The notes under the pieces are model-generated. The model ran no database searches and was not told the origin of the DNA. It saw only the letters and a program-made list of their open reading frames with translations. Of a stretch of DNA of 64,000 nucleotides, positions 8,562 through 44,457 are shown in pieces. Positions within the stretch are counted from its first letter, which is position 1, and each line of letters begins with the position of its first letter. Origin of the DNA: a virus; IMG/VR virus record IMGVR_UViG_3300027833_000001, positions 32,001 to 96,000 of that record. The stretch is one strand, 5' to 3'. A program made the translations under genes and the position numbers.

Positions 8562-8595
8562 ATGTATATATTGAATGATTGAGAGAGGATATAAT

Positions 8596-16566: not shown

Positions 16567-16568
16567 GG

Positions 16569-17708: not shown

Positions 17709-17793
17709 TGTATCTCCTTAATAAGATTAGTAACAGCCGAGTGCTGTACTCTGACATGATAATCAAATCACTTATTATAAAGAGAAATTCCGC

Positions 17794-17822
17794 TTGACAT
17801 AATGAGTTCCATGGTGTATAAT
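17794..17822 (+). promoter_or_regulatory. sigma70-type promoter for the biosynthetic operon
   Basis: TTGACA-N17-TATAAT. Confidence 0.8.
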
Positions 17823-17824
17823 GC

Positions 17825-17832
17825 TATTTATA
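17825..17832 (-). promoter_or_regulatory. late promoter for the minus-strand secreted-protein operon
   Basis: TATTTATA = TATAAATA on the minus strand. Confidence 0.65.
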
Positions 17833-17877
17833 ACCGTAATAAATACAAGTAGAAAGAGTAGAACTATGGTGATATAA

Positions 17878-18609
17878 ATGAGAAAAGCAGTACTTAAACA
17901 AAACAATTCCTGGGCACCCATCACATTGTTGATTAGCCAACTGATCGCTCAGGTGTCATTGATACCTATGATCATGTACGCACAGTCTTGGCAATGGATA
18001 CCATTCATCGCTGTCTATTGCGCTATGATGTTAGGTGTTACAATGGGATATCATCGATACTGGTCACACCATGCATTCAAGTGCAATAAAGTTATTGAGT
18101 ATGTTATGATGTTCTTTGCTCACGTTATGATGATCGGTCCAGCAATTACTTGGGCAGCCAATCATAGAGAACATCATAGATATGCTGATACGGAAAAAGA
18201 TCCACATTCACCTCACTATAGAGGTTGGCTTCTTGCATACTTTGGACAAGTTCTTATTAATATAAACTTCAAGTATGCCCGAGACTTATTGAAGCAGAAG
18301 TTATGTCGAGATCAGGTAAAGTATTATTGGCACGTTATAGGAGCATATGCTCTCTTGTTAGTTTTGATTGATCCGTTTGCTTTAATATATGCTTGGTTAG
18401 CACCAGCAGGTGCCGCTAAGTTGATTGGCTCTTTCGTATTTACATTTTCACATAGAGGCAAAGAAGCGCATAGTGATACTTGGTTAGGAATTATAACACT
18501 TGGTGAAGGTTTTCATAAAGCACACCATGATCACGGTAACAGACAAATTCTTTGGCATAAACTTGACCTTGGAGGACAGTTAATCAGACTTATTGATAAA
18601 ACTGCTTAA
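17878..18609 (+). CDS. membrane fatty-acid desaturase (delta-9/DesC-like)
   Basis: His boxes HRYWSH, HREHH (then DPHSP), GEGFHKAHH; TM segments. Confidence 0.9.
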   Translation: MRKAVLKQNNSWAPITLLISQLIAQVSLIPMIMYAQSWQWIPFIAVYCAMMLGVTMGYHRYWSHHAFKCNKVIEYVMMFFAHVMMIGPAITWAANHREHHRYADTEKDPHSPHYRGWLLAYFGQVLININFKYARDLLKQKLCRDQVKYYWHVIGAYALLLVLIDPFALIYAWLAPAGAAKLIGSFVFTFSHRGKEAHSDTWLGIITLGEGFHKAHHDHGNRQILWHKLDLGGQLIRLIDKTA

Positions 18610-18612
18610 ATT

Positions 18613-19311
18613 ATGAATTTTAAATATGTACCCTTTGTGGCTGATAGATTTGATTATGACTATTGTAGAAGACACCCGTATCGCAATCAATTAGAAGCAC
18701 ACCCAATCGCCAACGCAGATGATATGGCTTTACTCCATGAAAATCTTACGGACTGGGAAAAAGCTATTATCATTGCAGGAAGTTATTACTTTATTTGGGA
18801 TAGCTATGACCAGAAAAGAATAACAGAGCAATCAGACAAACTAATCAGCATTGAAGACTGTCAATTCTCTTCAGATGTCCATGCAAACTCTACCAGTCTT
18901 ATTAAAGAATATGTAGAAACATATCAAGGTACTTTTAGTTTCTTGATGGGTAACAATGACTACAGACCTAAAGCAGATAGCTACTTTAAACACGCACATC
19001 AACCTACAGAGATTGATGGCAAAACATATGAAGACACTTTCACGATTATCTATCCTATACATCTAGAAAATGACGTTATAGAAGAGTTCAAAATTTTCTA
19101 TGTGGAAGAAGAAGGAATCTACAAGCTATTAAAAGCACCATTGACTTATCCAGACGGAGATGTTAAAAGTGTAAGATTTCCTAAAAAGGGTGAAGCACTC
19201 TTGATACACTTTAATTCATGTAAGGGTATTCATTGGATAGACGGACTTACTAATAATAATTTTATGGCTCATGCATTTGATTCTGTCAATATGAGGAAAG
19301 AACTATGCTAA
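18613..19311 (+). CDS. hypothetical protein, possible double-stranded beta-helix oxygenase
   Basis: KHAH...TFTIIYP...FNS..IHWI. Confidence 0.45.
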   Translation: MNFKYVPFVADRFDYDYCRRHPYRNQLEAHPIANADDMALLHENLTDWEKAIIIAGSYYFIWDSYDQKRITEQSDKLISIEDCQFSSDVHANSTSLIKEYVETYQGTFSFLMGNNDYRPKADSYFKHAHQPTEIDGKTYEDTFTIIYPIHLENDVIEEFKIFYVEEEGIYKLLKAPLTYPDGDVKSVRFPKKGEALLIHFNSCKGIHWIDGLTNNNFMAHAFDSVNMRKELC

Positions 19312-20003
19312 AGAAACGAGATTTGCCTGTTGTTGCTCCTATTCCAGGAATACGATTTAACTTGGATAAGATTAAAGAAGAACTTGCTAAGATAGAACAT
19401 CTATGGGAAGACATCTACAAAGCTAATCCCGGCATAACAAAATTACATGATCCATCTTTTGTTGATAATGCATATGCAAACTTAAAAGAGATTCCCTTGA
19501 TGGTAATGTCACCAGAGAATATGGCAAAAGCTGATGACTTTGAACTTGAAGATTTGGGTGCTACTCTTAGAGATAGAATTCGTAATAAGAAAGCGAAGGG
19601 TGATAACTTACCACCAACTGCAAATGAGATGTTGTGGGATTATCAGACTGATGCTTGTAGGGGTACTTACTTTGAAGAAGCATTAGCAGGACACTTTTCT
19701 GCACCAGTTTGTCGTGCTAGACTACACTTTCTTGCACCAGGTATGAGTTTACAACCACACATTGATTATGATCCATCTTATGGTGTTAGAATCGTCTGTC
19801 CTATATCTGGAACTGATGAATGTATCAATCAATTTTGGGTAAACGGTGAGTATCAAGAACATAATCTGCCAGCAGACGGAAGAGTTTGGTTTTTGAATAC
19901 TGGATTTAAACATGGCGTAGTAAATAATGGTACTGAGCCACGCATTGCATTATTAGCTACATTGAAGAGTCAGGAAGATATAGAATGTTTGAAATTAGTA
20001 TAG
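19305..20003 (+). CDS. Fe(II)/2OG oxygenase, Asp/Asn beta-hydroxylase family
   Basis: RARLHFLAPG..PHID (HxD)...LPADGRVWFLNTGFKHGVVN..PRIAL. Confidence 0.8.
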   Translation: MLKKRDLPVVAPIPGIRFNLDKIKEELAKIEHLWEDIYKANPGITKLHDPSFVDNAYANLKEIPLMVMSPENMAKADDFELEDLGATLRDRIRNKKAKGDNLPPTANEMLWDYQTDACRGTYFEEALAGHFSAPVCRARLHFLAPGMSLQPHIDYDPSYGVRIVCPISGTDECINQFWVNGEYQEHNLPADGRVWFLNTGFKHGVVNNGTEPRIALLATLKSQEDIECLKLV

Positions 20004-20626
20004 TAGAGTATGATGGTTCTAAAATAGAAAGAGAACAGATAGAGAACTTTAGAGAGTTGTCTTTTAAAGAAGGTAATGATAGTTTAGCATATGACAAATA
20101 CGACCCAGACAAGACTGGTCAGACGTTTTTAAATTATGTTGATGGCAAGCTGGCTTCATTGAGTGTTATAGAGCCAAGTCATTACACGGGTGATCCAACT
20201 GTAGCCGCAAGAGGTTGCAGACTTCACATTGCTACTGAATTTAGACCTGCTTGGTTAGGATTGCTTCATGCACCTAAACAAATTATGTGGGCAAAAGAAA
20301 ATGGGTTTAAAGTATTCTTCTTTACGCATGATATTCGTAACAGAGCAATTAATGCAATGTATCAAAAACGAAGATTTGGTGGAGCAGTTACAGAGTTACA
20401 GAAACAGATGGAATGGATGTGGACTTCAGATTGGTATCAGGACTTGTCTCTTGATAGAAGACTATTATTTCAAGTCGATGAAAGGTCTGACTTATTACAG
20501 TATGTTTATTATTGGACATTAGAAGAAGGGTATGTCTGGAAACCACCTAGCAATGTTGTTTGGTATGACCACGATGGAAGAATAAAATCGAACGTAACAG
20601 AAAAGGAAATAATTAATGCACATTAG
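19985..20626 (+). CDS. GNAT-like acyltransferase
   Basis: DGKLASLS...RLHIATEFR...QIMWAKENGFK..FFT..N. Confidence 0.5.
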   Translation: MFEISIVEYDGSKIEREQIENFRELSFKEGNDSLAYDKYDPDKTGQTFLNYVDGKLASLSVIEPSHYTGDPTVAARGCRLHIATEFRPAWLGLLHAPKQIMWAKENGFKVFFFTHDIRNRAINAMYQKRRFGGAVTELQKQMEWMWTSDWYQDLSLDRRLLFQVDERSDLLQYVYYWTLEEGYVWKPPSNVVWYDHDGRIKSNVTEKEIINAH

Positions 20627-21227
20627 CGGTGAAGTAGTTGCCACTTGGTTTAACTTTCTTAGAGATAATCAAGATGATCCAGAAGTTTGTCGTAGATACT
20701 ACGAATGCTTTTGGGAAAGTCAATTGCAAAGTAAACAAGTAGTGTTGGACATGATTGATAGAATGGATGTGTATCAATGTTACATCTTTGGTGGATGGTA
20801 TGGGTTGCTTGCACAGATTTTACATGATTCAATCCGAAATCATCATCCTGTCGTTAGTGTTGATATAGACCCTAAGTGTGCTATTGTAATTAATAATTAT
20901 TTTAATCCTGAAGATGGTATTGTAGCACATACAGGTGATATGGCAACATATAAGTATATTATTAAGCCCGAACTTGTTATCAATTGTAGTACAGAACACG
21001 TTGATCAAAAAACATACGATGCTTGGTTTGATAGAATACCATTGAACACTGAGTACATTATTCAAGGTAATAATCTGGATATACCAGAGCATATAAGACT
21101 TGCAGATGATATTAATCATTTTAAAGATATTAATAGATGCACCAAAGTCATTGATAAGAGAGTTACTGACTGTCCTGGACCCAATGGAATCTTTCAGAGA
21201 TATACGATTAAGGGAATCAAAGTATAA
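20616..21227 (+). CDS. class I SAM methyltransferase-like protein
   Basis: IFGGWYG, SVDIDP, TGDM, VINCSTEH. Confidence 0.7.
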   Translation: MHISGEVVATWFNFLRDNQDDPEVCRRYYECFWESQLQSKQVVLDMIDRMDVYQCYIFGGWYGLLAQILHDSIRNHHPVVSVDIDPKCAIVINNYFNPEDGIVAHTGDMATYKYIIKPELVINCSTEHVDQKTYDAWFDRIPLNTEYIIQGNNLDIPEHIRLADDINHFKDINRCTKVIDKRVTDCPGPNGIFQRYTIKGIKV

Positions 21228-21230
21228 TAC

Positions 21231-22022
21231 ATGGACAAAAAAGTGATAGCAGTCCATCTAGGACTCAATAAAGAATATACTCTTAATATAGAACTCTTTG
21301 ATCACAGAGTGGCAAATCGAATATGGGAAATGATACGGGTAGCAGATGATGTAGACTTTGTTTCTCGTATGGAGTTTTATAAGTTTGGTAAAACTGAGTC
21401 ACAAGTAGAATCCGACTTATATGAAACAATAGAAGAACTAAAGCGATTAAAACCTGATACCTTTACACTAGATTATGATTTAAATAGATTACATGAAAAT
21501 TTTCCTGAGTTAGTACGCACAGAAACATCGTCATCGATAAAACACTGTTTGACAATGTTTAATTATCATCTGCATCATCTTGAAAGAATGCGTCAAGGTG
21601 GTGGAAGACAATTTTTATTCTGTAGCAACATTGAGTCAGAACCTTTACAAGATGAAGACTATGATCTTTTTACTATAGGCAATAAAGAAAACATTGCTTA
21701 TATGAACTATCCTCATGTGGGTAAGAGTGTTACAGAAATAGTACAACAAGAAGACACAGAAATTCCATCACAACATATTCTCCCTACAAGTGTAATCAAG
21801 CCAGATTTATTGTTTCACTTAGACGAAGATAGATGGATAGGGAACGAACAAACAATAGTAGAATACATAAACTCATGGCTTGTTAAGATACAACATAAGT
21901 TACCGTATCCTATTAACGATAAAAGATTGGCACTTGGACACATACCCATAGGTAAAATAATCGATCCAAATATAACTAGTATAACAGAGAATCAATACAT
22001 ACACAGCATAGAGGCTATATGA
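21231..22022 (+). CDS. hypothetical His-motif protein
   Basis: LNRLHENF, NYHLHHLE, YPHVGKS. Confidence 0.7.
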   Translation: MDKKVIAVHLGLNKEYTLNIELFDHRVANRIWEMIRVADDVDFVSRMEFYKFGKTESQVESDLYETIEELKRLKPDTFTLDYDLNRLHENFPELVRTETSSSIKHCLTMFNYHLHHLERMRQGGGRQFLFCSNIESEPLQDEDYDLFTIGNKENIAYMNYPHVGKSVTEIVQQEDTEIPSQHILPTSVIKPDLLFHLDEDRWIGNEQTIVEYINSWLVKIQHKLPYPINDKRLALGHIPIGKIIDPNITSITENQYIHSIEAI

Positions 22023-22570
22023 AAACTTTATCAATAGAAAGTTGGGGAACTCAAGCAGAATATATTCGTAGTGGTCTTAATCTGACGCTATTCGATAAAA
22101 ACCTAGCAGAGATAGTTGACAATGGTATTGATGCTTGTATTGTATGTACCTTCAACTTACTAAGCATTCCAAACTTTAAAGAGTTTCTTGATGTTATGTT
22201 GGAATTCAAGACTGTTGCATGGCTTCGTGGTGAAGGTAAGGTATCTTTGGACACTTTCCCAGTTCATAGTCATTATCATTTATCATCATTGATATTAGAT
22301 GATAAACAGCTTGACAACCTCCGCAATTTAGTGTATTATATGTCTAAATCTGTAGATGATAGGGATGTTACTAAATTTAACTCAATAGAGTTCGCTAAGT
22401 TTGAGCGAGTACTCACATGGGTTGAGGAGAATAGGTTTACTGGTGATGAATTAGTCAAGAATAGATTAGATTTTAAAAAGTTTATTGATGAACACGATAA
22501 GGAAAGGGGTACGAACTTTACCAAAACTTTTCCAGAATTGGAGTATTTCTACGAGATGTGTAATGGCTGA
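22019..22570 (+). CDS. C-terminal half of a Twitch radical SAM paralog (no CxxxCxxC)
   Basis: SIESWGTQAEYIRSGL, TFNLLSI, DFKKFIDEHDKERGTNFTKTFPEL match the C-termini of the neighbouring enzymes. Confidence 0.7.
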   Translation: MKTLSIESWGTQAEYIRSGLNLTLFDKNLAEIVDNGIDACIVCTFNLLSIPNFKEFLDVMLEFKTVAWLRGEGKVSLDTFPVHSHYHLSSLILDDKQLDNLRNLVYYMSKSVDDRDVTKFNSIEFAKFERVLTWVEENRFTGDELVKNRLDFKKFIDEHDKERGTNFTKTFPELEYFYEMCNG

Positions 22571-23948
22571 AGAAGGCACTAATGAATATTGGATCAAAGA
22601 ATTAAAAGATAAAAGAATCAAGATAAATGAAATAAGTCCTTCTTTTTGTTCTGCTAAATGGTTACAGACTACTCTGATGTTACAGAATGGTTATAATCAT
22701 TCATGTCACCATCCATCCCCACACAAGATTCCTGTTGAAGAAGTCTTGGCAAATCCAGCGGCATTGCATAATAGTAATTATAAGAAAGTGCAAAGAGACA
22801 AGATGTTGTCTGGTGTTCGACCTAAAGAATGTGACTATTGTTGGAAGATAGAAGACTTAGACAAAGAGTATTTCTCTGACAGACATTACAAGACTGCTGA
22901 TTGGTGGGCTTGGGATAAAGTTGACATTATTGCAAAGAGCGATCCTTACGAAGATGTTTATCCTACTTACTTAGAAGTATCATTCAGTAATGCTTGCAAC
23001 TTTGCCTGTGCTTATTGCTCACCCGAAATATCTTCTGGGTGGATGAAAGACATTCAGAAAGATGGCGTGTATCCAGTTAAGTTTGGTTCACATGATTTGA
23101 ACTATCTTAAAGAAGTCGGCAAGTATCCATTCAAGAATAGTGATCCAAATCCTTATGTTGATGCATTTTGGAAATGGTTCCCAGAAGCATTTAAACATCT
23201 AAAAGTATTCCGCATTACTGGTGGTGAACCTACAATGTCAAAAGACTTTTGGAAAGCAGTCGATTATATTGTAGAACATCATCACGAAAATCCAGAACTT
23301 AAAATAGGAATCAATAGTAACTTAGGTACAGACCCACGTTTGATCGAAAGACTTATTGAGTCTGTTATAAGACTAGAATCACATGGCATTGATGTTGAGA
23401 TATTCACTAGCGCAGAAAGTACTGGTAATAAAGCCGAGTATGCTAGAGATGGTATTGTCTATGATGAATGGATAGCGAACATAGAACGTATGTTGACAGA
23501 AACAAATTGTCGTGTTGTTATTATGACAACGGTAAATATATTGTCGATATCTTCAATGGTTGAGTTTGTTCAAGATATAATGGACTTACGTATTAAGTTT
23601 AATCAGAACTTGGCGCATAATAGAATACCATTAAGTGTAAACTACTTACGTTATCCACCGCATTTACAGTGTACATTGTTGACACCTATTTACCGAGAGA
23701 CAATGGCTAATACATTAGAGGTATTTTGTGAGAGTTGGTTGAAGTATGATTCACCTGACAAATTTGCTAGATTGTACTTAGAAGAATTTGACCAAGTTAA
23801 AAGACTTTGTGACTATCTGAGATCGGAGCCTACCGCAGATAAATACAGAGAAGACTTTGCAAACTTTATTAAAGAATACGATAGGCGAAGAGGAAAGAAC
23901 TTTAAAAATACTTTCCCCGAATTGATTAAAGATATGGAGAAATGGTGA
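22563..23948 (+). CDS. N-terminal Twitch-domain radical SAM enzyme 1
   Basis: CSAKW..SCHH..CDYC; CNFACAYC; ITGGEP. Confidence 0.9.
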   Translation: MAEEGTNEYWIKELKDKRIKINEISPSFCSAKWLQTTLMLQNGYNHSCHHPSPHKIPVEEVLANPAALHNSNYKKVQRDKMLSGVRPKECDYCWKIEDLDKEYFSDRHYKTADWWAWDKVDIIAKSDPYEDVYPTYLEVSFSNACNFACAYCSPEISSGWMKDIQKDGVYPVKFGSHDLNYLKEVGKYPFKNSDPNPYVDAFWKWFPEAFKHLKVFRITGGEPTMSKDFWKAVDYIVEHHHENPELKIGINSNLGTDPRLIERLIESVIRLESHGIDVEIFTSAESTGNKAEYARDGIVYDEWIANIERMLTETNCRVVIMTTVNILSISSMVEFVQDIMDLRIKFNQNLAHNRIPLSVNYLRYPPHLQCTLLTPIYRETMANTLEVFCESWLKYDSPDKFARLYLEEFDQVKRLCDYLRSEPTADKYREDFANFIKEYDRRRGKNFKNTFPELIKDMEKW

Positions 23949-25456
23949 AAAAAGAACATGATTTAATTAAGTATCGGGAAGATATTCTTGATACCAAATC
24001 TAAAAGTTTTTGTGGTGCAAAGTGGTACAATGCTACTACTTGGTTGGGCAGTGGCACTACTGCTTCATGTCATCACCCGCCCGCGCATAAAATCCCACTA
24101 GACGAAATCAAAGTCGACCCATCTGCAATTCATAATACTAAGCATAAGAAAACTATGCGGAAGATGATGCAGAAAGGCGAACGTCCAAGAGAGTGTGAAT
24201 ACTGCTGGAAAGTAGAAGACATGGATACGGGTGCTGTTAGTGACCGTACATACAAGTCGATCATCTATTCAGAAGAAGAACTTCAAGCCGCATTTGAAAT
24301 GGACCCTGATGAGAGTGTTGATTTAAAAACATTTGAAATATCATTTGACCGTACTTGTCAGTTGGCTTGTTCTTATTGCAACTCAAGTTTCAGTACAACA
24401 TGGGCTAAAGATATTAATAAGAAAGGTCCATATCAGAATCTAGTATCTGATGGTGCTGGAGCATTCCAACATAACGGAGATTGGGCAGATCCATATGGCA
24501 AGAAAGAAACTAACCCGTATGTAACAGCATTCTGGGATTGGTGGAATGACGGACTATCTAAGAGTCTAGACGAATTGCGAGTTACTGGTGGTGAGCCGTT
24601 GATGTCAGATCAGGTATGGAAACTGTTTGACTGGTTTGGTGAGAATAAAACAGATATGAGATTTGCAATCAATTCAAACTTGATGGCAAAAGATTCTATC
24701 ATTGATGCGATGATTGCGAAGACACAGAAAGTAGATCAGTTCCATCTTTATACTAGTTGTGAAGCAACGGGATTACAAGCAGATTATATCCGCGACGGAT
24801 TACATTATGAAACTTGGAAAAATAATGTATACAAGATACTGACTAATGGTAGACTTAGTGGTTGTAATATTATGATGACTATTAATAGTTTATGTTTGTT
24901 TAGTATCACGGACTTTCTTGATGATGTATATGATATGAAAATACACACAGGAATGAAAGCACCTGTTGTTAGTTTAAACTTGTTACGTTTTCCTAGCTTT
25001 CAATCTCCTCTTGCTTTACCAGATCATCTTAAAGATCACTGTCGAAAGCAACTACAAGATTGGTGGGAAGAAAAGAAAGATTTAAAATTGTGGCATGAAT
25101 TTGAAAGGGCTAGTATAGAACGTCTTATTGACTATCTTGTTACTGTTGATGCACCACATAGACGTACAAGTGATAAGATGACTTTATGGAGAGACTTCAA
25201 AACTTTCTATGCTCAATACGATGAAAGAAGAGGGTTGTCATTATCTGTATTTCCTAAAATTCTTACTGACTGGGTAGAAACTATTCCTACTACAGAAACT
25301 ATTCCATTAAAAGAAATGATTGATGGTGATAGCACTAGACAGTATGACAATGACCCCGATTTACAAGAGACTGTATCGTTAGCGAATGAAGAGGGTTGGG
25401 TACTTGACCCAGATAGTGAGAATATTGATGAACCTTTAGCATCGTATGACGAATGA
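23942..25456 (+). CDS. N-terminal Twitch-domain radical SAM enzyme 2
   Basis: CGAKW..SCHH..CEYC; CQLACSYC; VTGGEP. Confidence 0.9.
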   Translation: MVKKEHDLIKYREDILDTKSKSFCGAKWYNATTWLGSGTTASCHHPPAHKIPLDEIKVDPSAIHNTKHKKTMRKMMQKGERPRECEYCWKVEDMDTGAVSDRTYKSIIYSEEELQAAFEMDPDESVDLKTFEISFDRTCQLACSYCNSSFSTTWAKDINKKGPYQNLVSDGAGAFQHNGDWADPYGKKETNPYVTAFWDWWNDGLSKSLDELRVTGGEPLMSDQVWKLFDWFGENKTDMRFAINSNLMAKDSIIDAMIAKTQKVDQFHLYTSCEATGLQADYIRDGLHYETWKNNVYKILTNGRLSGCNIMMTINSLCLFSITDFLDDVYDMKIHTGMKAPVVSLNLLRFPSFQSPLALPDHLKDHCRKQLQDWWEEKKDLKLWHEFERASIERLIDYLVTVDAPHRRTSDKMTLWRDFKTFYAQYDERRGLSLSVFPKILTDWVETIPTTETIPLKEMIDGDSTRQYDNDPDLQETVSLANEEGWVLDPDSENIDEPLASYDE

Positions 25457-30410: not shown

Positions 30411-31980
30411 GCCTTTAACTGCCAATCAGGGCGATAGGATAATATTACTTTTAGAACGTATTGCAGAAGCACTTGAACATCCAAAACTTAGCCACAATAC
30501 GACCACGATATCTAATACTATTCCTAGACCGAATCTTGGTAGATATGAACAGGCAGAGTATCCAGAAATTACTTTCAATGTATTCTTTGATAGATTCAAT
30601 GAGTCTGTTACTAACCCCAATGGTAATGGACAAGCACAATACCCTCCAAATGGAAGTTTAAAAGATCATATTTGGGATACTATTTTCCAAAGAATGAAAA
30701 CACATACGTTTGCAATAAGAGCATACGATGTAAAAGACTATGAAAGCGCATCAAAGTCATTTGATGAGAATGATGTCAATATTTTCCCAGTAGATTTGTG
30801 GGTAGATATGGAATTTGGCAAATCAATATCATCAATATCAGATAACGCAAAGAAGCTAATTGCAGACAAAAAACTATCACTGTTCTTATGTCTAATGGGT
30901 GAAGCGTTTGGATGTGATTATGAAGACTGGATAGCTAAACTCTCACAAGCAATTATAGGACATGGTCTTGCACAAGGTAAGATTGCAATATCATGTGCTG
31001 ACTTACGATTCCCAGAAAACTACGAAGAGTGGTCTAAAGACAATACTAAAATAACTTCCATGTTTAAATTTGAGAATATATTTCCATATGAATATTTTCA
31101 GTTGTTATATGCAGAACAATTTCAAGCAAGAACTGGTAGATGGTTACCTGAAGGCAAGCCAGCTAAATTCGGTAATATAGATGCACTAAGACCTATAAGC
31201 GAGGCTGAAGTCATGTTGAGTGTTCCTGATGGAACTACTAAGACTAAAGACTTCTTATGTATGAATGCCAGATCGAGACCACATAGAATTGCTATGGTAT
31301 CAGAACTGCATAGATTAGGATTAGATAATAACTTTATTAGTTTATTGTTTAGAGGTGATGATGTTGATAGTATTGTTAACCAAGATGGAATAATTAATTT
31401 TATCCGCAATGAATATATGGACACTGAAGCGAAACTAAATCACTTCAACACAATGTTTGTTAAGAATAGAAGTAAGAGAAAAATAATACTAGATGCAGAT
31501 GAAGCAGTCCATGCAGATGATAGAATACTTAATACCAAATATTTTGATGAGTCTTATTTTAGTCTTGTTACAGAAACAAATTTTGGAGTAACACTTGGTG
31601 AAGGTCAATTTCATCAAGAGTCATACAACACAACGATGTTTATTACAGAGAAGACATTTAAACCTATAGCGTATTTTCATCCTATTATTGTTTTAGGATC
31701 TCCTTATACATTAGCATTTTTAAAAGACGAGGGTTACGATACTTTCGAAGAGATGTTTGATGAGTCATATGATTTAATACTTGATCCACAAGAACGCTTT
31801 AACGCTGTTGTTACCCAAGTGAACAACTGGTGTAGAAAACCAGAAAAAGAAAAACGAGAGATATACGATTCAGTTAAGAAGAAGTTACATCACAATCATT
31901 GCCACTTTATCGGTAGATTTGATACACTGAGAAGAAGGGAGAAAAACTACTACAGGTATTTAGGGGCAAAATTAAGATGA
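30394..31980 (+). CDS. putative glycosyltransferase (GT10/fucosyltransferase-like C-terminal motif)
   Basis: FLCMNARSRPHR, YFSLVTET, FITEKTFKPI..HPIIVLG, GYDTF..FDESYD. Confidence 0.55.
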   Translation: MARQDEPLTANQGDRIILLLERIAEALEHPKLSHNTTTISNTIPRPNLGRYEQAEYPEITFNVFFDRFNESVTNPNGNGQAQYPPNGSLKDHIWDTIFQRMKTHTFAIRAYDVKDYESASKSFDENDVNIFPVDLWVDMEFGKSISSISDNAKKLIADKKLSLFLCLMGEAFGCDYEDWIAKLSQAIIGHGLAQGKIAISCADLRFPENYEEWSKDNTKITSMFKFENIFPYEYFQLLYAEQFQARTGRWLPEGKPAKFGNIDALRPISEAEVMLSVPDGTTKTKDFLCMNARSRPHRIAMVSELHRLGLDNNFISLLFRGDDVDSIVNQDGIINFIRNEYMDTEAKLNHFNTMFVKNRSKRKIILDADEAVHADDRILNTKYFDESYFSLVTETNFGVTLGEGQFHQESYNTTMFITEKTFKPIAYFHPIIVLGSPYTLAFLKDEGYDTFEEMFDESYDLILDPQERFNAVVTQVNNWCRKPEKEKREIYDSVKKKLHHNHCHFIGRFDTLRRREKNYYRYLGAKLR

Positions 31981-33386
31981 AAATAAATTTATTCTATGAT
32001 AGATTCGGTGAAAGTGAAGAAGGTAAGTATCTTGTTAATGGTAGCACATTTGATATGCAATTTGAACACCACCCACAGGCATTGACTAGTTGTAGTGTTT
32101 ATCCTAGTATGGTCCACGCCGGAGTTGATGTCACTGCCCAAAATACGATGGATCGTAAGGCGGTCAACATCTATCCAGTAGACTTATGGGTACATATGAA
32201 CTTTGATACAGTCATTGATAAGATATCAGAAGAAGCAAAGACACTGATAAGAAAAGGAGACTTAATACTGTATCTAACTCTTTCTGGTGAGGCTTTTGGA
32301 TGTGATGAGCAAAATTGGATAGCAGATTTAACAGATGGCATTGTAAGGAACAACCTGACTGATGCTAAGATTGCAATACAATGTGCCGATATGAATTTTG
32401 AAGCTAACTATGATGCTTGGTTAAAAAACAACCAAGTAAGTTATACATTCCGTAATGTGTTCTCAATAGACTTTTTTCAGTGGACGTACTCAAAGCAATT
32501 TCAGATGCGAACTGGTAAATGGAGTTGGGAGAACAATGCTCCCAAAAGATATAATGGTATACAAGTCATGTTTCCAAATGAAGTATTACATGGCACTACT
32601 CCTGGCACTGAGAAAACTGGTGACTTACTATGCTTAAATGGAATGTCTAGACCACATAGAATCGCAACTGTCGCTGAGTTACATAGACTTGGTTGTTCGA
32701 ATGACTTTGTAAGTTTATTGTGGCGGTACCAAGATATAAATAATCTAACAGGACTAGATAATGTAAAGAGTCATATCATGGATAACCTATTAGCGTCGGC
32801 TGAACAGAAAGAATATTTTAATGAATATTTCGATATAAGTCCCAACAATATTCAACCACATCCAGGAATTATTGATATTGACCTACAAGAAAATATTTTC
32901 TTGAATGATGATAGAAGAATTGAATTATCACACTACACAAAAACTTTTTTCAGTCTAGTTACCGAAACTGTTTTTGATTCAGGTAAGTCTGCGGTCAACA
33001 AAAATGGGTTTACGAGTATTGATCAGTTTGATAACGGTATATGTTTTATTACAGAAAAGACATATAAACCTATAGCGTATTTTCATCCATTCATTCTTAT
33101 GGGTTCTTTTAAGTCACTTGAATACTTACGAAAATCAGGATACGAAACTTTTCCAGAAATGTTTGATGAGAGTTATGACACTATGGAAGATTCTAAAGAC
33201 AGATTTAATGCTGTTATAGAACAAGTACGATTATGGAAAGAAAAAACACAAGAAGAAAAAATCACAATTTATGATTCTATTGTACCAAAGTTGGTACACA
33301 ATCATAATACTTTAATAAAGAAGTCTGCCCTACTTGATGCGGTAGCGTTTGAAGACTATAGTAAAATAGGGAGTGCATTGTTATGA
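31977..33386 (+). CDS. putative glycosyltransferase, paralog of the preceding gene
   Basis: LCLNGMSRPHR, FSLVTET, FITEKTYKPI, FDESYD. Confidence 0.55.
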   Translation: MKINLFYDRFGESEEGKYLVNGSTFDMQFEHHPQALTSCSVYPSMVHAGVDVTAQNTMDRKAVNIYPVDLWVHMNFDTVIDKISEEAKTLIRKGDLILYLTLSGEAFGCDEQNWIADLTDGIVRNNLTDAKIAIQCADMNFEANYDAWLKNNQVSYTFRNVFSIDFFQWTYSKQFQMRTGKWSWENNAPKRYNGIQVMFPNEVLHGTTPGTEKTGDLLCLNGMSRPHRIATVAELHRLGCSNDFVSLLWRYQDINNLTGLDNVKSHIMDNLLASAEQKEYFNEYFDISPNNIQPHPGIIDIDLQENIFLNDDRRIELSHYTKTFFSLVTETVFDSGKSAVNKNGFTSIDQFDNGICFITEKTYKPIAYFHPFILMGSFKSLEYLRKSGYETFPEMFDESYDTMEDSKDRFNAVIEQVRLWKEKTQEEKITIYDSIVPKLVHNHNTLIKKSALLDAVAFEDYSKIGSALL

Positions 33387-34537
33387 AAATAGGCTTTATT
33401 GGATTCGGTAAATTGGGTCAACCATGTGGAGAAGTAATTAAACTTAAAGGGCATGATGTAAAGGCATATGATGTAGCTAAAATTGATACATTCGTGCCAA
33501 TGTGTGACACTATAGAAGAAACTGTCAAAGATAGGCATATTGTGTTTGTTGCAGTTCCCACACCACATGATCCAGCGTATGAAGGAAGTTCGCCAACACA
33601 TCACTTACCTCCAAAAGACTTTTCTTATGATATCGTGAAAGATGTTATTATAGAAGCTAATAAACACATGAATCCAGACCAAATGTTGGTGGTTATAAGC
33701 ACTGTGTTACCGGGCACTGTACGTAGAGAGTTCGTACCATTAGTTACTAACACTAGATTTGTATATAACCCATACTTGATTGCTATGGGTACAGTCGCTT
33801 GGGATATGGTAAACCCAGAGATGGTAATGATTGGCACAGAAGATGGTGACACATCTAAAGAAGCTGGAGAACTAATTTACTTTTATGCAAGTATCATGGA
33901 GAATGATCCTCGTTATGTTGTAGGCACATGGGATGAATGTGAGTGTATCAAAGTTTTCTACAATACATTTATTAGTGCCAAGATAGGTCTTGTGAACATG
34001 ATACAAGATGTTGCAGAAAAACAGGGTAATATCAATGTTGATGTTGTTGCAGATGCATTGAGAGATAGCACTCAAAGAATTATGGGTCCTTCTTATATGA
34101 AACCTGGCATGGGTGACGGCGGTGCTTGTCACCCCAGAGACAATATTGCTTTACGTTATATGGCTGAAGAATTAAATCTTGGTTATGATATGTTTGCTGA
34201 AATTATGAAAGCTAGAGACATACAAGCAGAGAATATGGCAAAAGCCATACTGGATAAAGGAGAAGTTGTATACTTCACTTCAGACAGCTACAAACCAAAA
34301 GTCAAATATACAAATGGTAGTTATAGTTTACTTGTACAAGATTACGTAAAATCTTTGGGAGGGGAAGTGGCAACTGATCCATCTTGTGCAGAAGTTATTG
34401 TTATTGTACACCAAGGAGATACAGTGGGAGATGACGTACAAGTACCTAAAGAGGTTATCTACTTTGATCCTTGGAGAACATACAAGAGCGATACTAATTA
34501 TGTTATCCATTACGGCAATACAAGGAGAATTAAATGA
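33383..34537 (+). CDS. ugd: UDP-glucose/GDP-mannose dehydrogenase family
   Basis: GFIGFGKLG, VAVPTP, ISTVLPGT, IKVFYNTFISAKI, GDGGACHPRD. Confidence 0.9.
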   Translation: MKIGFIGFGKLGQPCGEVIKLKGHDVKAYDVAKIDTFVPMCDTIEETVKDRHIVFVAVPTPHDPAYEGSSPTHHLPPKDFSYDIVKDVIIEANKHMNPDQMLVVISTVLPGTVRREFVPLVTNTRFVYNPYLIAMGTVAWDMVNPEMVMIGTEDGDTSKEAGELIYFYASIMENDPRYVVGTWDECECIKVFYNTFISAKIGLVNMIQDVAEKQGNINVDVVADALRDSTQRIMGPSYMKPGMGDGGACHPRDNIALRYMAEELNLGYDMFAEIMKARDIQAENMAKAILDKGEVVYFTSDSYKPKVKYTNGSYSLLVQDYVKSLGGEVATDPSCAEVIVIVHQGDTVGDDVQVPKEVIYFDPWRTYKSDTNYVIHYGNTRRIK

Positions 34538-34647
34538 AACAACTATGGGACAAAATACGCGCACCATATCTCAGATGGAAACTAAAACGAGAGTATAGGA
34601 AACGCATCAAAGAATTACAAGATAGAGATCCTTTTATATATGATTGA
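34534..34647 (+). CDS. 37-aa basic peptide ending DPFIYD (not in ORF track)
   Basis: MKQLWDKIRAPYLRWKLKREYRKRIKELQDRDPFIYD*; AAGGAG SD; overlaps both neighbours. Confidence 0.75.
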   Translation: MKQLWDKIRAPYLRWKLKREYRKRIKELQDRDPFIYD

Positions 34648-36079
34648 ATGGGGAGTTAGTGCTGGCACACATGATGCCTCTTTGACTGTGATGTACGACA
34701 ATGGTTGGTCTACACCAGAAATTATTTTTGCATCGCATTCTGAAAGATATAGCAGATTTAAAAATGACAAGCACTTAAATGAAAGTTTAATACGTGAGGC
34801 TCTCAAGTATGGGCGACCCGATGTGGTTTACTGGTATGAGAATCCTCTACTTAAAGCAACTCGTAAGTTATATGCTAGACAGAGTAAACCTTGGCTTAGT
34901 CCTAAGAAGTATCTTAGAGAATGGGGTATCGATGCACCAGTAAAATGGGGTAATCACCATGAGAGTCATATGGCAGCCGGGTACTATACACGACCAAAAA
35001 ATTGGAGTACTGATTGTGCTACTCTTGTTATTGATGCTATAGGAGAATGGACAACTACTAGCATTTGGTACAATGATGAGCAATTGTGGACTCAGAATTA
35101 TCCTAAATCATTCGGATTGTTTTATTCTGCATTTACAGATAGAATTGGATTGAAAGCAAATGAAGATGAATATATTCTTATGGGTATGGCAGCCTACGGT
35201 GACCCTTCTAGATTTCATAGAGAGGTATTGGATCTTTGGCATTCCGGTGTTAATCTCCATAGAGGTATTTCTTGGTGGATGCCTGAACTTACTGAAGACG
35301 ATTATTTCGATGTAGCCGCGGCTGTTCAAACAGTATATGAGTATCAGTTTAGAATGTTACTTCAGAAAGCCCATACAATAACAAATACAAATAATCTAGT
35401 TTTTATGGGTGGGTGTGCATTGAATTGTCTTGCAAATCGATTGATACCAGATTACTTCAAGAATCATTGGATAATGCCTAATCCAGGAGATGCTGGTTCT
35501 TCATTGGGCGCTATATTAGCACACAAGAAATGTCATATTGATTTTAATGTTTATTTGGGTGAATCCATATATGGTAAATATCCAGTTAAGGCTTTGTTAG
35601 AGGAATTGAAAACTACTGGTATTGTAGGTGTTGCAAACGGTCAAGCAGAGTTTGGACCTAGAGCATTGGGTAATAGAAGTTTATTAGCTGATCCTAGAGG
35701 TAAGAAGATGCAAGACAAAGTAAACGCAATCAAACAACGACAAGAGTTTAGACCATTCGCTCCAGTTATTCTACAGAGAAACGCATATAAGTATTTTGAT
35801 GTGAATAAAAACTTTTCATCTCCGTATATGCAACAAGTAGTCAGATGTTTAGAGCCTAAAAAGTATCCTGCAATAGTACATAAAGATGGTACTAGCAGAG
35901 TTCAGACAGTAACTAGTCAAGATCATAAAGGGTTATACAAGCTACTGACACGATGGGAAGCAGAAACAGGATGTCCTATGTTGTTAAACACTAGTCTTAA
36001 TATCAAAGGTGAGCCAATAGTAAACTCCAGACAAGATGCTGAAGACTTTGAAATGGAATATGGTGTAAAGGTCTTTTAA
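34640..36079 (+). CDS. O-carbamoyltransferase (NodU/CmcH/TobZ family)
   Basis: HDAS, SERYSR.K, HHESH, DAIGE, EYILMGMAAYG, GGCALN, EFGPRALGNRS, RPFAP, HKDGTSRVQ, LNTSLN. Confidence 0.95.
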   Translation: MIEWGVSAGTHDASLTVMYDNGWSTPEIIFASHSERYSRFKNDKHLNESLIREALKYGRPDVVYWYENPLLKATRKLYARQSKPWLSPKKYLREWGIDAPVKWGNHHESHMAAGYYTRPKNWSTDCATLVIDAIGEWTTTSIWYNDEQLWTQNYPKSFGLFYSAFTDRIGLKANEDEYILMGMAAYGDPSRFHREVLDLWHSGVNLHRGISWWMPELTEDDYFDVAAAVQTVYEYQFRMLLQKAHTITNTNNLVFMGGCALNCLANRLIPDYFKNHWIMPNPGDAGSSLGAILAHKKCHIDFNVYLGESIYGKYPVKALLEELKTTGIVGVANGQAEFGPRALGNRSLLADPRGKKMQDKVNAIKQRQEFRPFAPVILQRNAYKYFDVNKNFSSPYMQQVVRCLEPKKYPAIVHKDGTSRVQTVTSQDHKGLYKLLTRWEAETGCPMLLNTSLNIKGEPIVNSRQDAEDFEMEYGVKVF

Positions 36080-36777
36080 TGCGTATCGTAGTTGGTGGTG
36101 ATAGTTGGACTAAAGGATGGGGCTTGGATTTTGCGATGGGTCAAGCACCATGGCCATGTTACTTAGACGGTAATAATGAAGTTAATAATGTCTCGCAAAG
36201 TGGTGATAGCAACTCAATAATCTGCCAAGAAATAAAATCAGCATATCATAAAAATAAACCCGATCTAATCATTGTCGGATGGACAAGTATGCTGAGATGT
36301 CACACAACAAGAGGCACTAAAGGTTGCCCCGCTGAGTCGTCCTATGTAGAGTGGTTAGCGAACAAATATGAAGCATCAACTATTGATGACTTTAGAAGTC
36401 AATGGTTTGATTATGTAAATCAGATTGAATCATTACCCTGCAATGTAATACACTTTACTGTATTTGGAGATGAATTACCACCTGTTAAGAACAAGATAGA
36501 TAAATCATATCTGGAGTATCTTGCCAACGACTCGGGCTATAACTTTCTATATCGTATCCCAACATTTGAGTTTGGACTATTACAGAAAGAAAGCGCCAAA
36601 AGCATGAAAATGTTATTTCAAAATTCTGGTGTTGAAGACTATGAATTGGCGTGTTTTGAAAGAGATAAAGTCCAGCTAGATTTTCAAAGCTCCAATTTTC
36701 AGATATGTGGTCATCCTACACATATAGGACACATGAAATGGGGAGAGGAAGTAAACCGTGCCATTCGATCATTATAA
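36079..36777 (+). CDS. SGNH/GDSL-fold protein
   Basis: GGDSWTKG, NVSQSGDSN, IVGWT, GHP..GH. Confidence 0.7.
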   Translation: MRIVVGGDSWTKGWGLDFAMGQAPWPCYLDGNNEVNNVSQSGDSNSIICQEIKSAYHKNKPDLIIVGWTSMLRCHTTRGTKGCPAESSYVEWLANKYEASTIDDFRSQWFDYVNQIESLPCNVIHFTVFGDELPPVKNKIDKSYLEYLANDSGYNFLYRIPTFEFGLLQKESAKSMKMLFQNSGVEDYELACFERDKVQLDFQSSNFQICGHPTHIGHMKWGEEVNRAIRSL

Positions 36778-37957
36778 TTTTATATCATGTGTGACTGACA
36801 ATGTAGAAACAGTATTTTTTAAGAACGAAGAAGTAGAAGCTGAACACTACATAGACAAAAGACCCAGAGAAGAAGTATATCACTACTTGGTAGATAGTGC
36901 CTTTAATTTTGAAAAGGACACTATGGTAATATATGTCAAGGGCTACAAGTATAGCAATGGACATTCAAGTATTGTTAATCATATAAAGAAAGTCTCTCCC
37001 AAAAAAATAATCATATTCAATGATGACGCACACACTCCTTGGCAAGAACTTGATCTCATTATAGATACGCTTAGAGGTAAGACGCATGAAGGTCTTCTTA
37101 TCTCATATCTTGTTGCAGAGTCTGGCATAGAAGACTACGAGATATATGACTGTGAGTATGGTGCTTTACACTACTACCACAGCAACATACAAGCCGATAG
37201 GTACCATTACTACAATATATGGACTCATACGTATGTTCCACATTCTAGATTGTTATTAGAAGAATATAAACCCAATGATGATATTCAATACAAAGTTTGT
37301 TGTTGCAGTAAGAAGCCAGACATACATAGAGCATTAGCCGCCATCTGTTTAATTGGCAGAGAAGATGTTAAGTTGACGTATTACGAAAAGCATAGATTAC
37401 AAGAGATACATCGAATGATTTCTTATACGAATACTGACAAAGTTATCAATCCACCAGAACCTACATTTATGACATTGCCAGAAAAGTACAAGAAGTTGAT
37501 TAATGATAATCACAAAAAGTTTTTAGAAACTGACTTGACTTGGGACGTAAGTGCGATAAACCAGATTGCTGGACATGAGCAAGTCAAGACAATAGCACTA
37601 TCTAGAGATTCATTCCTAACAGTTGTACCAGAAACTCTGTGGGATACACAAACCAGATTCTGGTCAGAGAAGACATTAAAACCTATGTTGATGCACAGAC
37701 CTTTTGTGTTATTAGCCCCACCAAAAACATTAGACAAAATACGAAGATTAGGATTTCAGACGTTTAGTAATTTTTGGGATGAGTCTTATGATGAAGAATT
37801 GGATCATGGAAAAAGATTTGCTATGGTAATGGATATCGTGGATGATATTCTAAATAAAAGTAAGGAAGATTTAATATTTCTTTTAAAAGAAATGGGACCC
37901 ATACTAGCACACAATTTAAATCATGTGAGTGAGTTGACAAAGAGGAAAATAATGTAG
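36758..37957 (+). CDS. putative glycosyltransferase (GT10-like motif), third paralog
   Basis: KPDIHR, LTVVPET, WSEKTLKP..RPFVLL, GFQTF..WDESYD. Confidence 0.55.
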   Translation: MPFDHYNFISCVTDNVETVFFKNEEVEAEHYIDKRPREEVYHYLVDSAFNFEKDTMVIYVKGYKYSNGHSSIVNHIKKVSPKKIIIFNDDAHTPWQELDLIIDTLRGKTHEGLLISYLVAESGIEDYEIYDCEYGALHYYHSNIQADRYHYYNIWTHTYVPHSRLLLEEYKPNDDIQYKVCCCSKKPDIHRALAAICLIGREDVKLTYYEKHRLQEIHRMISYTNTDKVINPPEPTFMTLPEKYKKLINDNHKKFLETDLTWDVSAINQIAGHEQVKTIALSRDSFLTVVPETLWDTQTRFWSEKTLKPMLMHRPFVLLAPPKTLDKIRRLGFQTFSNFWDESYDEELDHGKRFAMVMDIVDDILNKSKEDLIFLLKEMGPILAHNLNHVSELTKRKIM

Positions 37958-38797
37958 ATGGCTGAAATACTCCACATGAAAACCAGAAAGGTTGATATAG
38001 AACAGATTCATGTATATGGATGTTCGATGCCAGCTGGTGATGAATTGACTGTTCCAAGAGATAAAGACTATGTTCCTTTGGCAGGAAAAGAACTATTGGC
38101 GTGCGAAAAATCTGACAAACGGCAAGCATTCCCAAAGACTGTTGGTGATCATTTTGATATACCAGTTATCAATAATGCATTTTGGGGTGCATCAAATGAG
38201 CAGAGTGCATACATCTTACTTGAAGATATAATGAAACAAAGAATAGAGCGCAACCATGCAGTGTTCTTTTGTGTTACAATGATAACCCGTATTATGCACT
38301 TTGATAAAGATGATGGACACCCAATGTCTTTACAATTGGGTAAACCAGATGTGCTGAATAAAATTGCAGATGATGAGACTATAGTTAATCATTATAACGA
38401 CTTTAAGATGTTGTACCAATACTACACAACGATGCATCAAGTTATGTTGTTATGTAAATCTATAGGTGCTCCATTGTTCTTCATACCGATGTATGAACAT
38501 CCTACATGGAACTTAATGAGAGACTATATTCCATATGATCGTAAACTTAAAAAGAAACCGGATATAGTCAGGAATGAATGGAAATTTAGAAAAATTATTG
38601 ATAATATAGCAAGAGAAATGAATGGAGTATCTCTTTGTATAAATCCTATACGTATTGCAACATTCAACTGGTATACCAACAGTTTAGAGGAAAAGGGTAA
38701 AAAATATTATAGTGCAGGAGGTCATCCTAATAAATATGCACATGACCAGTATGCACAGAGATTAATTGAATTGCTAACACCCGAAAAAGCTAAATAG
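37958..38797 (+). CDS. SGNH/GDSL-fold protein
   Basis: YGCSMPAG, NNAFWGASN, GGHPNKYAH. Confidence 0.65.
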   Translation: MAEILHMKTRKVDIEQIHVYGCSMPAGDELTVPRDKDYVPLAGKELLACEKSDKRQAFPKTVGDHFDIPVINNAFWGASNEQSAYILLEDIMKQRIERNHAVFFCVTMITRIMHFDKDDGHPMSLQLGKPDVLNKIADDETIVNHYNDFKMLYQYYTTMHQVMLLCKSIGAPLFFIPMYEHPTWNLMRDYIPYDRKLKKKPDIVRNEWKFRKIIDNIAREMNGVSLCINPIRIATFNWYTNSLEEKGKKYYSAGGHPNKYAHDQYAQRLIELLTPEKAK

Positions 38798-38801: not shown

Positions 38802-39110
38802 ATGAGCAATGTCATTCAGTTTCCATTGAATGCGAGATCACCAGAATATGAACCATCTGGTTATCGTATAAACCTTTACACGGAAGATCAAATAGAAGTG
38901 GTCTTACTCTGTGTCAACCTCTGTGAAGAGCAAGATTCCACAAAAAAATACGCGCGGAAGGATCTAAAATTAATGGATCCAGTATTCGTTATGGTCCGTA
39001 TGAACGTCTGTTTAGACAATAAATTTCTTTCACAACCAGCAAAGGAGGCGATCTTAAAAATTGTTAATTCAATCGAAGTAATTCCTATATCATCACTACA
39101 GCAAAAGTAA
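38802..39110 (+). CDS. hypothetical protein
   Basis: MSNVIQFP start; GCTAAATA late-like box upstream. Confidence 0.7.
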   Translation: MSNVIQFPLNARSPEYEPSGYRINLYTEDQIEVVLLCVNLCEEQDSTKKYARKDLKLMDPVFVMVRMNVCLDNKFLSQPAKEAILKIVNSIEVIPISSLQQK

Positions 39111-39903: not shown

Positions 39904-39981
39904 GTCATTGATTTTGTTGACTTTAAATATTACGTAAAAAGCGTAAAAAAGGTTGACATTTGGCTATTGTTTTGCTATAAT
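39901..39981 (+). promoter_or_regulatory. IHF-like box plus early promoter giving a leaderless mRNA
   Basis: AATCAATGACTTA on the minus strand (39901-39913); TTGACA(39953)-N17-TATAAT(39976) with extended TG; ATG at 39988. Confidence 0.8.
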
Positions 39982-39987
39982 AGTCTT

Positions 39988-44432: not shown

Positions 44433-44457
44433 ATAGTTCTGTCAGTTTGTTCTACTA

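Follow-up and report, generated by a model that had tools for sequence, protein, structure and literature searches.

Analysis of a 64,000-nucleotide (nt) stretch of viral DNA (the window; bases 32001-96000 of the complete 165,127-bp IMG/VR virus record IMGVR_UViG_3300027833_000001, in which direct terminal repeats are present) revealed a ~21-kb island of twenty + strand open reading frames (ORFs), g1 to g20, in one tightly packed run at window 17878-38797. Six of these genes, g8 to g13, encode full-length radical S-adenosylmethionine (SAM) enzymes of a single catalogued family, and they stand among predicted glycosyltransferases and enzymes of the kinds that activate or decorate sugars. We favor, at a little better than even confidence, a reading in which the island is a modular, early-expressed gene set of a lytic marine T4-like phage that makes or tailors a sugar or glycan.

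A tandem set of N-terminal twitch radical SAM genes

The NCBIfam family NF033640 (N_Twi_rSAM, "twitch domain-containing radical SAM protein") has a curated cut-off of 170 bits. All six proteins encoded by g8-g13 exceeded it over the whole length of the model (217-346 bits), bearing out the six full twitch enzymes of an earlier reading of this DNA, made from its letters and ORFs (the original prediction). Each contains invariant cysteines at C7, C26, C78, and C81, followed by C132, C136, and C139 (CxxxCxxC) and then by GGEP. Positions 20-97 of a profile built from the six paralogs aligned with residues 182-266 of BtrN (4m7t/4m7s), which make up its twitch domain (E 1e-5), and Pfam SPASM matched residues 7-85 of g10-g12. 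BtrN, the butirosin 2-deoxy-scyllo-inosamine dehydrogenase, is the founding twitch radical SAM enzyme. Its twitch domain, which is recognizably homologous to the N-terminal domain of g8-g13, follows the radical SAM core, whereas in g8-g13 the domain precedes it; identity is ~15%. Judged by these alignments, the N-terminal position of the twitch domain, with four cysteines ahead of CxxxCxxC, is real, as had been predicted, and it is the defining trait of NF033640, a bioinformatic subfamily without an assigned reaction. Here six old subfamilies occur in tandem in a virus, together with a truncated seventh.

The six paralogs are only 21-35% identical to one another. In a tree of 226 sequences, they fell into two superclades, {g8, g9, g13} and {g10, g11, g12}, with every radical SAM gene of the window in a separate clade that mixed viral and cellular members. 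By these relationships, g8-g13 represent separate subfamilies of old origin rather than products of recent duplication. The truncated copy, g7, had been overlooked in the original prediction. It lacks the twitch domain and the SAM-cluster cysteine motifs, although its frame is still open and its start overlaps the preceding gene. In the closest relative, an intact 442-amino acid (aa) N-twitch gene (L010:5565-6893) occupies the place of g6 and g7, and g7 is 65% identical to its C-terminus. g7 is the leftover C-terminal third of a seventh N-twitch gene, the 5′ two-thirds of which were replaced by g6.

A structural model of g10 superposed on SkfB, CteB, BlsE (Z 12.3), anSME, MoaA, SuiB, and DesII (Z 11.6), with Z scores of 11.6-12.9 overall. 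BtrN, BlsE, and DesII act on sugars or sugar nucleotides. Because peptide-acting and sugar- or nucleotide-acting enzymes match the model equally well, its fold alone does not name a substrate class.

The genes are arranged as an operon, in keeping with the ~20 same-strand, mostly overlapping genes that had been noted before. Fifteen junctions overlap by 1-20 nt, and the others are 0-4 nt apart, except for a single real gap of 102 nt between g16 and g17, before the carbamoyltransferase gene. One gene caller placed a 37-aa ORF in this gap (window 34534-34647, locus L135) that overlaps the carbamoyltransferase start. The predicted TTGACA-N17-TATAAT promoter upstream of g1 is exact and is the sole 12/12 match within 17500-37400. 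From the type of this promoter, the island is likely to be expressed early. We found no strong intrinsic terminator on the operon strand until 44457-44477. A second perfect TTGACA-17-TATAAT, with a TG extension, lies at 39953-39981 and overlaps the start of an exonuclease gene (39967-40650).

The window carries markers of a T4-like myovirus, including gp5, gp6, gp26, and gp48-type baseplate genes (47.8-63 kb), gp32, gp59, and gp33-like genes, PhoH, DNA ligase, and exonuclease. Its gp6 is ~35% identical to those of the nearest cultured phages, Pelagibacter phage HTVC008M (35%) and the Methylophilales Melnitz phages. Membership in the pelagimyophages (HTVC008M-like) was considered and rejected: the complete genome encodes neither ribosomal protein S21 nor curli CsgG, and the only marker from PMC7029224 that is present is the Asp/Asn hydroxylase, g3. 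Megablast of the 21-kb region against 50,697 phage records gave no nucleotide match, and the only genes recovered by tblastn with g12 were ~25% identical to it and belong to KVP40-like vibriophages and to a single Ralstonia phage. The surroundings of the g12 relative in Vibrio phage K566 are unannotated and gave no functional clue. As identical copies of g10 with the same neighbors occur in 11 contigs from several marine metagenome assemblies, and near-identical DNA is present in marine metagenome runs of ~12 studies, the phage is a real and recurrent ocean virus. One run labelled "air metagenome" also matches window 24000-33900 (84% of sampled words).

Outside the window, the phage genome encodes IscU (E 3.6e-54; G000:C1:130395-131071) and, next to it, a protein resembling an A-type Fe-S carrier that scores just below cut-off. 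Eight PF04055 matches were found in the whole genome, seven of them above cut-off. This content resembles that of T4-like environmental genomes described by Nishimura et al. (2017; PMC5332604), in which as many as 12 radical SAM genes accompany IscU or an A-type carrier. IscU and the A-type carrier would fit a role in loading the phage's eight radical SAM-type proteins. A B12-binding radical SAM gene with weak PhpK/HpnJ-like matches (window 44498-45997) stands alone past the gp32 terminator, outside the operon. Two further radical SAM genes lie elsewhere in the phage genome (G000 8513-9025 and 149389-149802), and relatives of the latter stand inside the arrays of other phages.

The radical SAM core in other viruses and in Bdellovibrionota

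A pattern scan revealed that at least 599 IMG/VR contigs encode a relative of g10. We mapped the best 80 of these and used the 47 loci of at least 18 kb for frequencies. In 46 of the 47 loci, g10 is joined by genes of the g8, g9, and g11 types. The order g8-g9-g10-g11 is usually maintained among the mapped loci, each of which has 3-11 N-twitch copies, with a median of 6. At least one predicted glycosyltransferase, of a GT10-like, GT8-like, or GT7-like kind, is encoded in 42/47. Other genes of the island recur less often: the carbamoyltransferase in 18 loci, the g5-type methyltransferase in 16, the nucleotide-sugar dehydrogenase in 10, and the g1/g3/g4 block in nine. The island is modular: its radical SAM core is fixed, and its peripheral genes come from a pool of sugar enzymes that recurs.

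This arrangement modifies the heavily tailored glycan pathway proposed in the original prediction. A sugar-centered, multi-enzyme reading is the best supported, but the 21 kb is a mosaic of at least three recombining modules and not one fixed pathway, and only the g8-g11 core is constant. Shuffling of genes among relatives with no co-occurrence had been named as an outcome that would count against a common pathway. This outcome is seen only in part: shuffling affects single genes of the periphery, but the classes of enzyme occur together and the core is retained.

The GT8-like proteins of the relatives are usually encoded as tandem pairs, and their family profile matches glycogenin (E 2.5e-7). 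Pfam identified GT7 and laminin-G proteins in a 334-kb viral contig. The array of this contig, a jumbo-phage relative (L140), also contains a RuBisCO large-subunit-like gene (19820-21043) and DUF6071 genes, and a carbamoyltransferase gene adjoins. For the commonest unnamed neighbor family (A9), comparison of its profile with Protein Data Bank (PDB) sequences gave nothing credible. Many of the relatives' loci have tail-fibre-like genes upstream, which match the "host recognition cluster" of pelagimyophages (PMC7029224).

A search of 185,579 species genomes revealed that cellular relatives are mostly in metagenome-assembled genomes of Bdellovibrionota, including a complete 3.7-Mb chromosome. Each of the four Bdellovibrionota genomes that we examined (G001-G004) contains 6-20 NF033640 copies above cut-off, while 14 control genomes contain none. 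A 30-kb island in a member of the Bdellovibrionia (L146; G002:C1:745000-775000) holds ~16 N-twitch copies and two Asp/Asn hydroxylase genes. In a Bacteriovoracales chromosome, N-twitch genes are grouped with genes for a carbamoyltransferase, a DegT aminotransferase, a GT1 protein, an MBOAT protein, a GDSL protein, an amidohydrolase, an ABC-2 exporter pair, a B12-radical SAM protein, and PqqD. This is the enzyme mix of the phage plus an exporter.

Glycosyltransferase-like, tailoring, and neighboring genes

The features of the island and its surroundings are collected in Table 1. Calls of the original prediction that we confirmed are the desaturase g1, the nucleotide-sugar dehydrogenase g16, and the NodU/TobZ-type carbamoyltransferase g17. 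A transmembrane (TM) scan of the cluster proteins detected helices in g1 only. g16 has the N-terminal NAD domain and the central domain; it scored 127 bits against TIGR03026 (below the cut-off of 189.8), and no match to the C-terminal UDPG_MGDP_dh domain was listed. g17 resembles the O-carbamoyltransferases TobZ, NodU, and CmcH in having both Carbam_trans_N and Carbam_trans_C, each above cut-off, and phrog_1601 is annotated as a Nol-like carbamoyltransferase; g17 differs from NodU itself in scoring 124 bits against a NodU equivalog cut-off of 1000.

Table 1. Positions (in the window) and supporting evidence for the operon, its promoter, and adjacent genes. AF2, AlphaFold2; pLDDT, model confidence score.
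Feature	Position	Strand	Evidence
Signal-peptide protein with ~200-aa Asn/Thr/Ser tract	16569..17708	-	Translation; Cys-containing C-terminal domain
Sigma-70-type promoter TTGACA-N17-TATAAT	17794..17822	+	12/12 match; 55 nt 5′ of g1
g1, membrane di-iron desaturase-like	17878..18609	+	PF00487 (FA_desaturase) 56 bits; three His boxes
g2, 232 aa, no assigned family	18613..19311	+	No Pfam, PHROG, or NCBIfam match
g3, putative Fe(II)/2-oxoglutarate (Fe/2OG) hydroxylase, Asp/Asn beta-hydroxylase family	19305..20003	+	PF05118 (Asp_Arg_Hydrox) 25.1 bits vs cut-off 22.6
g4, GNAT-like acyltransferase	19985..20626	+	Family profile vs PDB
g5, class I SAM methyltransferase-like	20616..21227	+	Family profile matches methyltransferase 3dtn, E 6.8e-6
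g6, 263 aa, no assigned family	21231..22022	+	No family or ESM Atlas match
g7, C-terminal remnant of a seventh N-twitch gene, 183 aa	22019..22570	+	NF033640 positions 237-398, 79 bits, E 3.3e-22
g8, N-twitch radical SAM	22563..23948	+	NF033640 308 bits; CxxxCxxC and four N-terminal Cys
g9, N-twitch radical SAM	23942..25456	+	NF033640 292 bits; own clade, support 1.0
g10, N-twitch radical SAM	25453..26766	+	NF033640 346 bits; AF2 pLDDT 92.7
g11, N-twitch radical SAM	26763..27956	+	NF033640 343 bits
g12, N-twitch radical SAM	27949..29145	+	NF033640 314 bits
g13, N-twitch radical SAM, most divergent copy	29142..30410	+	NF033640 217 bits
g14, GT-B glycosyltransferase-like	30394..31980	+	g15 paralog, 39% identity over 483 aa
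g15, GT-B glycosyltransferase-like, fold nearest GT10	31977..33386	+	AF2 pLDDT 77.7; top Foldseek matches all GT-B
g16, nucleotide-sugar (UDP-Glc/GDP-Man type) dehydrogenase	33383..34537	+	PF00984 and PF03721 above cut-off; phrog_9148 E 2.9e-91
g17, NodU/TobZ/CmcH-type carbamoyltransferase	34640..36079	+	PF16861 180.6 bits, PF02543 102.2 bits; phrog_1601 E 6e-91
g18, SGNH/GDSL hydrolase-like	36079..36777	+	Invariant G7-D8-S9, H212-P213
g19, GT-B-like	36758..37957	+	BLASTP E 1.4e-13 to g15, 6.5e-10 to g14
g20, no assigned family	37958..38797	+	C-terminal GHP..H motif only
g21, 102-aa protein, no assigned family	38802..39110	+	Order g17-g21 in L026-L031, L054
NAD-dependent sugar epimerase/dehydratase	41531..42421	+	PF01370 E 1.6e-31, PF16363 E 1e-30; 2.7 kb downstream

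The modelled fold of g15 and its sequence relationships to g14 and g19 suggest that all three are GT-B transferases, nearest in fold to GT10. In the structural comparison, g15 was matched best by 2nzw, the H. pylori alpha-1,3-fucosyltransferase of CAZy family GT10 (Z 13.1, root-mean-square deviation 4.5, 291 residues aligned, 11% identity). The next GT-B matches were GtfC, T4 beta-glucosyltransferase, and the phage HY126 glycosyltransferase (Z 11.4-11.5). Since these other GT-B families are only 1.5 Z units behind, the donor sugar of g15 cannot be named. g14 and g15 share a consensus ...TET...TEK... motif in the C-terminal half, and what g19 has in common with them is the C-terminal ~100 aa, the nucleotide-sugar half. 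No match of g14, g15, or g19 to Pfam Glyco_transf_10 (PF00852) was obtained up to E 10, and a profile of the g14/g15 family found no match among PDB sequences. The "three GT10-like proteins" of the original prediction are therefore GT10-like in fold but, in contrast to the H. pylori enzyme, not members of GT10 at the level of sequence.

Several of the smaller genes could be assigned from family profiles. The g3 family has an invariant H152, D154, and H203 (HxD...H), and its profile matched the proline hydroxylase 4p7w and the beta-hydroxylase 7v4f, which supports one of the Fe/2OG oxygenases proposed earlier. g2, considered as a second such oxygenase, has no similarity to the g3 family, and we rejected this assignment. 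g4 is probably a GNAT-like acyltransferase, as predicted: eight of the nine best PDB matches of its family profile were GNATs or acetyltransferases (1tiq, E 1.3e-4; 2i79, E 5.2e-4). The methyltransferase prediction likewise held for g5, probably a class I SAM methyltransferase-like protein, whose relatives have weak Pfam matches to Methyltransf_25, Methyltransf_2, and MTS. Two SGNH proteins had also been proposed. g18 may be an SGNH/GDSL hydrolase-like protein, as all 14 weak PDB matches of its family profile were GDSL-type esterases, thioesterases, or lysophospholipases (best E 0.006); a search for homologous proteins returned only six relatives, none with a name. For g20, an SGNH assignment was unsupported, as comparison with the g18 family using hhalign gave a probability of 5% and no family matched. 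Pfam searches up to E 10 gave nothing meaningful for g2, g4, g5, g6, g14, g15, g18, g19, g20, or g21.

Downstream, g21 is likely the last member of the island, as it stands behind the carbamoyltransferase in several relatives. The epimerase/dehydratase farther downstream scored under every NCBIfam equivalog cut-off; it may supply a nucleotide sugar.

A late operon (window 13625-17708, minus strand) is oriented divergently to g1, and close relatives conserve this arrangement. It is served by TATAAATA (minus strand, 17825-17832), a T4 late-promoter motif. Besides the signal-peptide protein with the Asn/Thr/Ser tract, it encodes a coiled-coil protein and an 822-aa protein that has a signal peptide and long tracts, both acidic and Asn/Gln/Ser-rich. 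Every one of the seven loci that include g1 together with its upstream flank encodes a protein of the Asn/Thr/Ser type; the 73 remaining viral loci lack it, and in them no strongly low-complexity ORF of at least 70 aa occurs within 10 kb of the array. Because the seven positive loci are close relatives, and hence not independent, the link to g1 carries limited weight. Within this lineage, the Asn/Thr/Ser protein is a fair acceptor candidate for the g1-g5 module, but it does not partner the radical SAM core in general. Few ORFs of biased composition occur in the cellular loci, mostly in those of 61-72% G+C, and none resembled the Asn/Thr/Ser protein.

What the island may make

The constant company of glycosyltransferases and the presence of sugar-activating and sugar-decorating enzymes argue for radical tailoring, in the cytoplasm, of a sugar or glycan. 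The homology of the twitch domain with that of BtrN, and the bacterial counterpart with its polysaccharide-type exporter, argue in the same direction. From this gene content we infer a substrate, individual reactions, and a target, as follows. All enzymes except g1 lack TM helices and would act in the cytoplasm of the infected cell. There g16, and perhaps the downstream epimerase/dehydratase, would produce modified nucleotide sugars, and g14, g15, and g19 would attach sugars to an acceptor. g17 would O-carbamoylate the sugar product, GNAT-like g4 and SGNH-like g18 would add or remove acyl groups, g5 would methylate, and g3 would hydroxylate. Each of the six N-twitch enzymes would use SAM to generate a 5′-deoxyadenosyl radical that abstracts a hydrogen atom from a sugar carbon, with the [4Fe-4S] cluster of the N-terminal twitch domain accepting an electron, as in BtrN. 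Each ancient subfamily could thus carry out a different oxidation, epimerisation, deoxygenation, or decarboxylation. Leading candidates for the acceptor are a host envelope glycan, which host machinery would export so that receptors are altered, and the secreted Asn/Thr/Ser-rich protein that the phage itself encodes. The term "natural-product-scale" and the list of possible targets in the original prediction remain inferences.

Several observations weigh against this reading. The peptide enzymes SkfB, CteB, anSME, and SuiB match g10 as well as BlsE, DesII, and MoaA do, and NF033640 has no member with a known substrate. Pfam and TM scans of the cluster detected no exporter, flippase, polymerase, or membrane initiating transferase. 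An envelope product would therefore need host machinery, and the island differs in this respect from an O-antigen or capsule biosynthesis locus, which has an initiating transferase, a flippase/polymerase, or an ABC-2 exporter; the Bacteriovoracales counterpart has ABC-2. That counterpart also includes PqqD, a peptide-binding type of protein. In one Bacteriovoracaceae chromosome, a g11/g10 pair lies beside tsaD, ksgA, and smpB without sugar genes, which calls for caution in over-reading gene context. The glycosyltransferase association was counted without a matched control, in loci picked by their likeness to g10. Because the peripheral genes shuffle, with g1-g5 limited to 9/47 long loci, some of them may be independent auxiliary genes.

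We considered three other explanations. In one, the product of the island is a matured protein or peptide: its N-twitch enzymes would act on a ribosomal substrate, here the Asn/Thr/Ser-repeat protein, by analogy with His-Xaa-Ser repeat-protein systems or proteusin-type epimerisation, and the Asp/Asn hydroxylase, methyltransferase, and glycosyltransferases would modify it further. The SPASM/twitch subfamily is dominated by peptide maturases, as the top matches of g10 illustrate, and the candidate substrate is encoded divergently in 7/7 loci with g1 and its flank. g3 belongs to the Asp/Asn beta-hydroxylase family, of which the Bdellovibrionia island has two genes, PqqD is encoded in the Bacteriovoracales island, and the structural neighbors of g15 include GtfC/Gtf3 and SdgB, which glycosylate Ser-rich repeat proteins in the cytoplasm. 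Yet the seven loci are close kin, the 73 others lack any such low-complexity ORF, and the constant neighbors of the core are glycosyltransferases and not repeat proteins. The promoter of the enzymes is early, and that of the candidate substrate is late. In addition, domain scans found no PqqD domain or RRE (the recognition element of RiPP systems, whose peptides are made by the ribosome and modified afterwards) in any window protein; a repeat protein of the kind expected in a RiPP or repeat-protein maturation system lies beside the operon only here and in six close relatives. We regard this explanation as unlikely.

Less likely still, in our estimation, is that there is no common product, and that a hypervariable "plastic" region has gathered unrelated auxiliary genes, among them a lipid desaturase, a carbamoyltransferase, sugar enzymes, and radical SAM genes, expressed from one early transcript and aimed at different host targets. 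The constancy of g8-g11 alone amid a variable remainder would fit such a region, as would the half replacement of one radical SAM gene by an unrelated gene. Hypervariable regions of such content occur in marine T4-like phages (PMC7029224), and PHROG has entries for the desaturase-like family (phrog_35201) and for the carbamoyltransferase (phrog_1601, filed as an auxiliary metabolic gene). However, 20 genes are tightly coupled for translation, the four-subfamily core retains its gene order, and N-twitch arrays of distant viral lineages and of a bacterial chromosome are again accompanied by these classes of enzyme. We give very little credence to the last alternative, that the island hypermodifies phage DNA with a tailored sugar in the manner of T4's glucosylated hydroxymethylcytosine. 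All enzymes would be cytoplasmic, and g15 does match T4 beta-glucosyltransferase (Z 11.4), alpha-glucosyltransferase (Z 9.4), and the HY126 enzyme (Z 11.5), but the GT10 fucosyltransferase outscores these DNA glucosyltransferases. The complete genome encodes ThyX and no ThyA-family dCMP/dUMP hydroxymethylase, which makes the T4-style DNA target included in the original prediction improbable. Moreover, the same arrays are found in Bdellovibrionota chromosomes beside exporters and membrane acyltransferases.

Returning to tailoring of sugars or glycans, a more specific proposal can be made for the family, which we hold only tentatively and at less than even confidence. N-twitch arrays may constitute a radical "glycan-editing" system, in which four conserved subfamilies and variable additional copies each make a different C-H-activating change on the sugars of surface glycans or glycoproteins. 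Such a system would be traded between marine T4-like and jumbo phages and the predatory Bdellovibrionota, perhaps for envelope remodelling. As both the phages and these bacteria attack Gram-negative cells, both may remodel the cell envelope with N-twitch arrays.

Glycosyltransferases and individual radical SAM genes are already known from phages. Radical SAM cassettes with glycosyltransferases in marine T4-like phages are already in print (PMC5332604, PMC7029224), so that the strangeness of the island had been overstated. In particular, Zaragoza-Solas et al. (2020; PMC7029224) described pelagimyophage variable regions with glycosyltransferases, UDP-glucose dehydrogenase, and "radical SAM cassettes," and read the glycosyltransferases and cassettes as serving O-chain modification. 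These two papers list genes without naming the family, the four-gene core, the link to Bdellovibrionota, or the chemistry, and our literature search found no paper on NF033640, on the N-terminal twitch, or on expansion of NF033640 in Bdellovibrionota. What is new here is the assignment of the cassettes, by profile matches, to one catalogued but unstudied family. Also new is a conserved four-subfamily core, nearly always beside glycosyltransferases, in a family that reaches at least 599 viral contigs and 6-20 copies in four Bdellovibrionota genomes. The compact operon, soluble enzymes, and phage-borne IscU offer a practical entry point for biochemistry. If the enzymes edit sugars, they would represent a large new set of carbohydrate-active radical enzymes and a new route by which abundant ocean viruses could alter cell surfaces or their own proteins.

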